NCBI GenBank assembly: GCA_964634365.1
Contig: CAZWJU010000001.1
Span: forward strand, 21,858 to 85,857
Direction: 5' to 3'
Origin: an uncultured Candidatus Saccharibacteria bacterium
GTDB taxonomy: Bacteria; Patescibacteriota; Minisyncoccia; Phycocordibacterales; UBA9973
Length of the DNA stretch: 64,000 nucleotides
Shown here: piece after piece, positions 6,177 through 6,375 of the stretch
Layout: every line of letters begins with the position of its first letter
Position numbering within the stretch: position 1 is the first letter of the stretch
Position numbers and translations under genes: made by a program
The notes under the pieces: generated by a model
Told to the model about the DNA's origin: nothing
The model's input: the letters and a program-made list of their open reading frames with translations, nothing else
Database searches by the model: none

Positions 6177-6375
6177 TTGTGCGTCGGGCAGGATTTGGTC
6201 ACGAATAATTTTTCTTACAGAAAATTTTCGCGACCTCGACTCGGCGACAAGCACTCGCTTCGCTCGTCTTGTATACCGCCTCCGTCTTTCAAATCCTGCC
6301 CGAAGGCTACAAAAACAAAAATCGCCCGATATATTCATATCGAGCTCATTTGTTTTGTGCGTCGGGCAGGATTTG
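6177..6375. repeat. miniature non-coding insertion (about 157 bp) flanked by 21-nt direct repeats of the tRNA-Tyr 3' end (copy A of a repeated element family)
   Basis: ttgtgcgtcgggcaggatttg is present at 6177-6197 and at 6355-6375 (the latter is the real 3' end of the minus-strand tRNA-Tyr). The insert carries the hairpin GGTCACGAATAATTTTTCT...GAAAATTTTCGCGACC and the conserved core CGACTCGGCGACAAGCACTCGCTTCGCTCGTCTTGTATACCGCCTCCGTCTTTC, which is also found at 31.4 kb. Confidence 0.6.

Follow-up and report, generated by a model that had tools for sequence, protein, structure and literature searches.

The closest described counterparts of the elements reported here are the tRNA-linked repeats (TLRs) of E. 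coli, known since 1978 (Egan & Landy 1978 and Rudd 1999, as cited in PMC8144298). E. coli K-12 carries 22 TLRs at ten loci, each ending in 18–19 nt of the upstream tRNA or 5S rRNA, and neither a function nor an origin is known for them (PMC8144298). Three TLRs of rrn operons lie between the terminators T1 and T2 and are made by read-through (PMC8144298). In the E. coli tyrT locus we found four RtT units. Each has a 5′ arm (GGGGAAGGAU) and a GAGAA joint, carries GAGCG..AGCGAG as an internal motif, and has a tail identical to tRNA-Tyr from A58 to its 3′ end. Over tyrT-rttR, a signal is reported from sequencing of exonuclease-resistant DNA (10.1101/2024.07.17.603846). The same layout is present behind the 5S rRNA (rrnB) and tRNA-Arg genes of E. 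coli, and the Tyr and Arg units both start at AATCC. At rrnB (locus L048, about positions 210–420), the region between T1 and T2 is a TLR with an 18-nt repeat of the 5S rRNA 3′ end (AACTGCCAGGCATCAAAT).

We analysed a 64-kb stretch of DNA (the window, 37.8% G+C) that carries five tRNA genes, as found by ARAGORN and Rfam, together with housekeeping genes for IF-2, ClpB, topoisomerase I, MraW, PBPs, DprA, RelA/SpoT and aminoacyl-tRNA synthetases. Among homologues of TopA and ClpB with a named source, the nearest are labelled Candidatus Pacebacteria, Paceibacterota or Nomurabacteria, which places the host in the Patescibacteria (candidate phyla). The window contains four clear copies of one element, located after tRNA-Tyr (E1), tRNA-Trp (E2) and tRNA-Gln (E3) and at 18.8 kb (E4), and a covariance model (R1, see below) added a fifth, decayed copy after tRNA-Leu (E5; Table 1). 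When the E1 region was scanned permissively against Rfam, the single match was RtT RNA (RF00391), which aligned end to end over positions 6177–6315 with a score of 17.9 bits (E 0.22) against a cut-off of 45, outside membership of the Rfam family. At gathering score, Rfam reported only tRNAs and LOOT RNA in the window, and no RtT. An original prediction, made from the window sequence, had described one family of small non-coding inserts between direct repeats of a gene 3′ end, and this description holds; ARAGORN and Rfam also placed tRNA-Tyr, tRNA-Trp and tRNA-Gln where it had put them. The antisense 5′ arm, the two-terminator setting and the kinship of design with the E. coli TLR/RtT units lay beyond it.

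Table 1. Features of the element copies and their host genes in the window (positions count from the first letter of the window; a slash marks the junction).
Feature	Position	Strand	Details
tRNA-Tyr(GTA)	6357..6440	-	ARAGORN; Rfam tRNA 62.7 bits
E1 spacer, terminator-like hairpin and T-run	6314..6356	-	hairpin 6324-6345
E1 5′ arm (A′)	6290..6313	-	
E1 core: J12 AAAGACGGAG, P2 hairpin, GAGTCGAGG, P3 hairpin GGTCGCGA...TCGTGACC	6197..6289	-	103.5 bits
E1 tail, 20-21-nt copy of tRNA-Tyr 3′ end	6177..6196	-	21 nt exact
tRNA-Trp(CCA), gene upstream of E2	8771..8842	+	ARAGORN; Rfam
E2	8885..8994	+	70.2 bits; A′ 8885-8908, core 8909-8974, tail 8975-8993
E5, decayed copy after tRNA-Leu (13006-13089)	13119..13240	+	R1 15.7 bits, E 0.04
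E4 tail, decaying duplicate of topA's last 69 nt	18796..18865	-	
E4 insert	18866..18994	-	73.2 bits; hairpin 18967-18988, A′ 18952-18962, core to P3 end 18866
topA 3′ end	18995..19067	-	target site CACC/AAAACCA at 19067-19057
E3	31402..31565	-	84.3 bits; A′ 31542-31565, core 31426-31541, tail 31402-31425
tRNA-Gln(CTG), complete	31679..31750	-	ARAGORN

In the direction of the upstream gene, each copy consists of a 5′ arm (A′), a three-way junction core (J12-P2-P3) and a tail duplicating the end of that gene (3′). The joint following A′ is purine-rich, (C/T)GAA-AGACGGAG; the P2 hairpin is closed by GAC/GUC and followed by GAGUCGG and then by the P3 hairpin, GGUC(G/A)CGAG...CUCGUGACC, which pairs the last nine bases of the element itself. 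Elements measure about 100–190 nt. The order at a filled site is gene, D, hairpin, A′, core, D and terminator, where D extends between a fixed junction and the gene end, and every filled site has the form D-X-D. As predicted, a common terminal hairpin, GGTC(A/G)CGA...T(C/T)GTGACC, adjoins the repeat in all four clear window copies, and between the 6.2-kb and 31.4-kb copies the 55-nt core, which had been called near-identical, has 2 differing positions. The window contains three occurrences of a 16-nt core motif, against 0.05 expected by chance.

Independent minimum-energy folds of the four window copies gave an identical three-way junction. We built the covariance model R1 from an alignment of 32 copies (A2); it recovers every seed, with scores of 52–104 bits, as well as new copies, and finds 41 full-length copies in the loci identified by motif search plus 4 in relatives. 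In the R1 alignment, 84% of pair cells are paired, compared with 74% after shuffling, and none of 500 shuffles reached the observed value. The middle pair of the P2 closing helix changes from A-U to C-G in 6 copies, a double compensatory change is present in P3 of the relative L041, and one P3 pair is a conserved G.U (35/41 copies). In 41/41 copies, the fold of the gene-sense strand is more stable than that of the complement, by a mean of 9 kcal/mol. Thus, the three-way junction structure is selected, and on the gene-sense strand only. A second core type obeys the same arms logic, A′-AAAA-P2-UGUACU-GACCCUGUAAGGGUC-tail, and is found behind tRNA-Trp in L012 and within the L023 array. Behind tRNA-Tyr in L043 (6437–6600, +), we also observed a third, diverged variant that R1 does not detect, with A′-AAAGAC and a P2 whose loop carries GAGCGAAGCGAG.

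The tRNA copies in the window all lie directly downstream of their gene and on its strand (Tyr, Trp, Leu and Gln), as E. coli TLRs do. At tRNA-Tyr, which has a promoter-like site at 6485–6458, the last 20 or so nucleotides of the gene, from A58, form the upstream copy of the E1 repeat, and the E1 arm (TCGGGCAGGATTTG), extended by the AA of J12, is the reverse complement of tRNA-Tyr T54-G69. The gene end of a tRNA had been said to recur as a second copy of 19–21 nt; this is exact for E1 (21 nt) and E2 (20 nt), and only 12 nt are exact for E3 against the intact tRNA-Gln, the E5 tail being lost altogether. The E5 arm (GGTGGAGAGACTTG, 13129–13142) has kept its exact complementarity to the tRNA-Leu 3′ end. 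The complete tRNA-Gln(CTG) is nested in a second tRNA-Gln (window 31611–31840, -) that is split near the anticodon stem into a 5′ fragment (31819–31840) and a 3′ fragment (31611–31650); the acceptor arms of the two fragments match (TGCCAGA/TCTGGCA), and imperfect inverted repeats (TATTCAAA...TTTGAATA) flank the inner gene. Compared by eye with the outer 3′ fragment, the E3 tail matches at 18/20 nt.

Terminator-like hairpins flank the elements on both sides in the sequence layout, one on the tRNA side and a second after each element. The first, with its A- and T-runs, combines with the tRNA 3′ end and A′ into one long hairpin, as the spacer, the tRNA-Tyr 3′ end and A′ do at E1. The second is a bidirectional terminator shared with clpB at E1 (about 6148–6176) and a terminator-like site at 9005–9027 next to the E2 tail. 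Since a terminator-like site stands between tRNA-Tyr and E1 and we found no promoter-like site ahead of E1, RNA of the element would depend on read-through.

Where exactly does the repeat begin? It had been placed right after the GGTT of the T-loop. In tRNAs, the junction instead falls between T-loop positions 57 and 58, A58 being the first repeat base, as in the E. coli units: the base that follows ...GACC at the element end mismatches tRNA base 57 in 4 copies, so base 57 is borne by the element. Tails are 5–35 nt long and often truncated, and the duplication overall ranges from 5 to 69 nt, the largest being that of topA. Exact runs of 18–23 nt are present in 10 copies of other loci and further copies are truncated, many copies with an intact core retaining tails of 5–10 nt and a matched A′.

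The A′ arm runs antisense to the target site in its intact form and crosses the junction, and in most copies it fits the upstream gene better than the element's own tail. We tallied the base of A′ that faces tRNA position 57, reading two mis-parsed and five unparsed rows by eye, and found it complementary in 24/30 copies: it is T in all 10 copies with A57, and C, never T, in all 14 copies with G57 that have a pyrimidine there. The remaining 6/30 copies have a G-A dinucleotide opposite position 57, like the E. coli units. The match is imperfect in places. In L012 the arm has 5 mismatches in 23 positions even though the tail is perfect, E2 scores only about 12 matched bases, and one Arg TLR of E. 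coli retains a Tyr-like arm (the L012 and Arg arms, like the E3 tail, were compared by eye from the printed sequence). Thus, A′ pairing may be historical rather than required.

tRNA genes are the usual hosts, and a protein-coding gene is a host as well. The fourth copy, predicted at 18848–18965, is real (73 bits); it is no orphan and sits within a duplicated topA 3′ end. E4 immediately follows topA (Pfam Topoisom_bac). The final 69 nt of the gene are duplicated around it, and the functional copy (D, 19063–18995) includes the stop codon. The E4 arm (TGGTTTTGGTG) exactly reverse-complements the site in topA, being complementary to CACCAAAACCA over 11/11 nt. In L023, where four elements lie in series behind topA, the arm AGTCTTGGTG complements CACCAAGACT over 10/10 nt. 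Both topA arms cover 4 nt to the left of the junction (CACC/AAAAC) that the element's own end lacks, the E4 end reading GACCG/AAAAC against CACC/AAAACCA in topA. The E4 tail can be read in frame as KTIPKRRSNNKCPNHRPDKLKK up to a stop, and next to it is a terminator shared with the convergent gene.

We retrieved relatives (80–96% identity) through TopA and found the topA site in several states. The orthologous site is filled in L047 (90% identity), with two 69-nt copies about 92% identical by eye; in L038 it is filled with an element of another subfamily; L034 holds a remnant; and in L035, L037, L044, L045 and L046 the site is cleanly empty, the stop codon being followed by the terminator. Thus, the elements are gained and lost, and with topA as a host they are not tRNA-specific as originally proposed. 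At the tRNA-Tyr site, the element is kept in L041, and L040 and L042 are arranged differently and lack it. L040 is, by ClpB (96%), the closest relative; there (5158–6807), tRNA-Tyr lacks the element and is inverted with respect to clpB; a gene for a 531-aa large serine recombinase overlaps the tRNA-Tyr 3′ end, and the same sequence lies downstream of tRNA-Tyr in L042.

The last ~20 codons of TopA (18995–19063, -) exist in two forms, ...NKACPNHNPHKL... and ...NNKCPNHRPDKL..., which are scattered among the 120 closest homologues (P0001–P0120) irrespective of overall identity. This pattern in the compared sequences suggests that the 3′ end of the gene is frequently replaced. We considered whether the element imports a foreign topA end (end types H and D) and rejected this: the end types are mosaic among the closest homologues, and the empty loci L044, L045 and L046 carry either type.

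How widespread are the elements? A search of the genome collection with the motif GAGTCGRGGTCRCGA-N8-38-TCGTGACC, which is strict and biases the sample towards intact cores, returned 32 loci, 28 of which are true copies. All 28 belong to Patescibacteria, in records titled Saccharibacteria, Parcubacteria/Paceibacteria, Adlerbacteria or merely "uncultured bacterium" or "bacterium", and most of the loci are 8-kb pieces of metagenome bins. The same search of viral contigs gave no match. The expected association with tRNA genes stood in part: 28/41 copies start no more than 51 nt from a same-strand tRNA end upstream, with a notably constant tRNA-to-element spacer of about 40–45 nt, and the topA copies fall outside it. 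The host tRNAs belong to at least 12 species (Ser, Tyr, Ala, Glu, Leu, Lys, Met, Thr, Val, Arg, Cys and Trp). Subfamilies defined by P2/P3 cut across tRNA identity and across genomes, one being found at Tyr, Gln, Ala and Ser and another at Trp, Glu, Leu and Thr, and arrays that mix different subfamilies are present in L013, L023 and L041.

No integrase was present among the 25 most frequent of 74 Pfam families in 54 window ORFs, nor among the 25 most frequent of 144 families in 114 neighbour ORFs, and in the most frequent neighbour families we saw no enrichment of recombinases of any kind near roughly 45 copies. The only transposases near copies are those of an IS3 that landed in one spacer: in L003 (1188–3888), two IS3-family transposase ORF sets are inserted between tRNA-Ser and its element, which explains the 2.7-kb tRNA-to-element gap of that locus.

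By design, the window elements agree closely with the E. coli TLRs. Both are non-coding units of about 100–180 nt that lie on the same strand directly behind a tRNA or rRNA gene; in both, the last 18–20 nt are the gene 3′ end, the repeat of a tRNA starting at A58; and in both a 5′ arm complementary to the repeat is followed by a GA-rich joint (GAUGAGAA) and an internal 12-nt motif (GAGCGAAGCGAG). They also share tandem arrays, the two-terminator setting (rrnB T1/T2) and the use of one core for several genes. They differ in core sequence, and R1 gave no match in the E. coli tyrT locus (L033). The window elements are further set apart by their Patescibacteria host, by topA as a target with its 69-nt repeat, by at least two core types and by filled and empty alleles among close relatives. 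Judged from these layouts, they appear to be elements of the same kind; homology rests on the sub-threshold RtT match and is unproven. We found nothing relevant in the literature on RtT-like RNAs and Saccharibacteria RNA motifs.

Likenesses to other systems are partial. With integron cassettes, in which attC acts as a folded single strand, the elements share a topology, namely a core-site copy at each boundary plus an inverse copy (A′ corresponding to R″), as well as a variable branched middle, folding that is strand-specific, bulged bases and arrays that stand behind a single entry site. Unlike attC, they have no conserved R/L boxes (GTTRRRY) and no IntI gene, their arms vary from target to target, and conservation lies in the branched middle rather than in the arms. 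Like guide-bearing elements (IS200/IS605, group I/II introns and the IS110 bridge RNA), they contain an internal stretch that complements the target across the insertion point and a second one, here the P3 5′ strand, that pairs with the element's own end. They have none of the defining proteins or ribozyme cores of those systems, and their guide is one contiguous arm of 11–22 nt; at about 90 nt, the core falls far short of intron size, and bases other than G can be terminal. A group-I-like reading, with A′ as internal guide and a terminal G, was rejected on the same grounds of core size and terminal base (G, A or U). Other self-cleaving ribozymes and introns in Rfam were discarded as well, the E-value scan of the E1 region giving RtT only; for hammerhead and hairpin-ribozyme cores, the joint sequences, mapped by eye, do not fit and Rfam gave no match.

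MITEs have constant terminal inverted repeats and a target duplication of fixed length. The arms of the present elements differ by target and the duplication spans 5–69 nt, which speaks against the MITE-like nature first suggested for them. PATEs derived from IS200/IS605 have conserved subterminal hairpins at both ends and insert 3′ of a fixed tetranucleotide with no duplication; here, the left hairpins are unrelated in sequence and a duplication is present.

What, then, are these elements? With a probability of about 0.5, we take them to be TLR-like, small, non-autonomous mobile modules that are gained and lost at the 3′ end of a transcribed gene. A different possibility is that they are read-through sRNAs serving the host, as proposed for E. 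coli RrA/B/F, which spread only by local duplication and gene conversion. The two-terminator layout and the conserved, strand-specific structure are compatible with such a role, RtT RNA is annotated as a stable RNA, and the E. coli TLRs downstream of 5S rRNA undergo transcription and processing close to the repeat, and in vitro they bind Hfq and CsrA (PMC8144298). A tail that acts as a processing signal would fit E. coli RrB. At topA, however, the "tail" is 69 nt of coding sequence with a stop codon and not an RNA-processing signal, and many copies with an intact core have tails of 5–10 nt and a still matched A′. Neither the missing element at the same site in close relatives nor the presence of one subfamily at unrelated tRNAs in distant lineages is readily explained by a host function, and PMC8144298 describes only modest effects of deleting the E. 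coli rrn TLRs. We therefore regard host-serving sRNAs as a possible but unlikely account of the family.

The prediction itself had proposed dependence on an integrase, the inserts being miniature derivatives or leftovers of a tRNA-targeting element moved in trans by a tyrosine integrase, with the repeats as attL and attR. The direct repeats do resemble attL/attR in sharing an identity block that runs from the T-loop to the gene 3′ end, as at classical tRNA att sites, and leave the gene intact; a circle that integrates leaves a D-X-D layout, serial insertions stack behind the gene as they do for such elements, and tRNA-Tyr is a hot spot, with the large serine recombinase gene adjoining it in L040. 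Against this, no tyrosine integrase or other recombinase was enriched near about 45 copies (25 most frequent Pfam families), and a full-length parent element, which the prediction had advised looking for, was found neither in genomes nor in viral contigs. The elements, of about 0.15 kb, have no integrase or cargo. One core subfamily is found at many tRNAs with unrelated T-stems and at topA, a target range too broad for one sequence-specific core-binding activity, the repeat length varies from 5 to 69 nt, and a duplex att site does not need a structure conserved on one strand. The integrase idea is thus unproven, and we think it improbable. The related idea that the inserts are excision scars is rejected: it does not fit the strand-specific structure in 41/41 copies, the compensatory pairs and the conserved G.U. 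Finally, although some MAG contigs are short, chance similarity or assembly artefact can practically be dismissed, since motif counts are far above those in shuffles, 45 copies come from independent assemblies and covariation is present.

How might such mobile modules propagate? A single-stranded, gene-sense form, either a read-through transcript or ssDNA, would be the propagating species. In it, P3 would hold the element's own 3′ end and A′ would hold the target, so that joining would take place at the P3/P1 corner of the junction. Duplication of the target 3′ end would keep the host gene intact and supply read-through transcription, and the direct repeats could then permit precise loss and tandem stacking. 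The join could be catalysed by a trans-acting protein or by the RNA itself, or it could come about when a looped-out circle recombines homologously; the product would be the same if such a circle (X plus D) integrated by site-specific or by homologous recombination, and D-X-D layouts can also arise and spread when strains exchange DNA by ordinary homologous recombination. A model of snap-back copying through the terminator hairpin, which could account for A′ at tRNAs, was rejected, because at topA A′ pairs only with a site about 100 nt upstream. More speculatively, TLR-type elements from E. coli to Patescibacteria might be self-targeting mobile RNAs or ssDNAs in which a programmable A′ picks the insertion point and the junction delivers the element's own 3′ end with no linked protein gene, possibly in a ribozyme-like manner or with a host enzyme; we consider this a long shot.

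The same design in a remote phylum, Patescibacteria, makes the old TLR question testable, and so do a protein-coding host gene, filled and empty alleles, and an arm that co-varies with its target. If the arm directs insertion, the elements would constitute a very small programmable insertion module. If it does not, they would still be a widespread means by which essential genes of reduced genomes have their 3′ ends and terminators rewritten.

Two further observations concern other parts of the window. After tRNA-Glu (56411–56485), the sequence GAGAATCGAACC at about 56549–56560 (+) is the reverse complement of a T-arm-like sequence and could be a decayed A′ arm; we detected no element core near it. 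The LOOT RNA (Rfam RF03000) at 61636–61761 (+) is full-length and scores 92.7 bits against a gathering score of 46.4.
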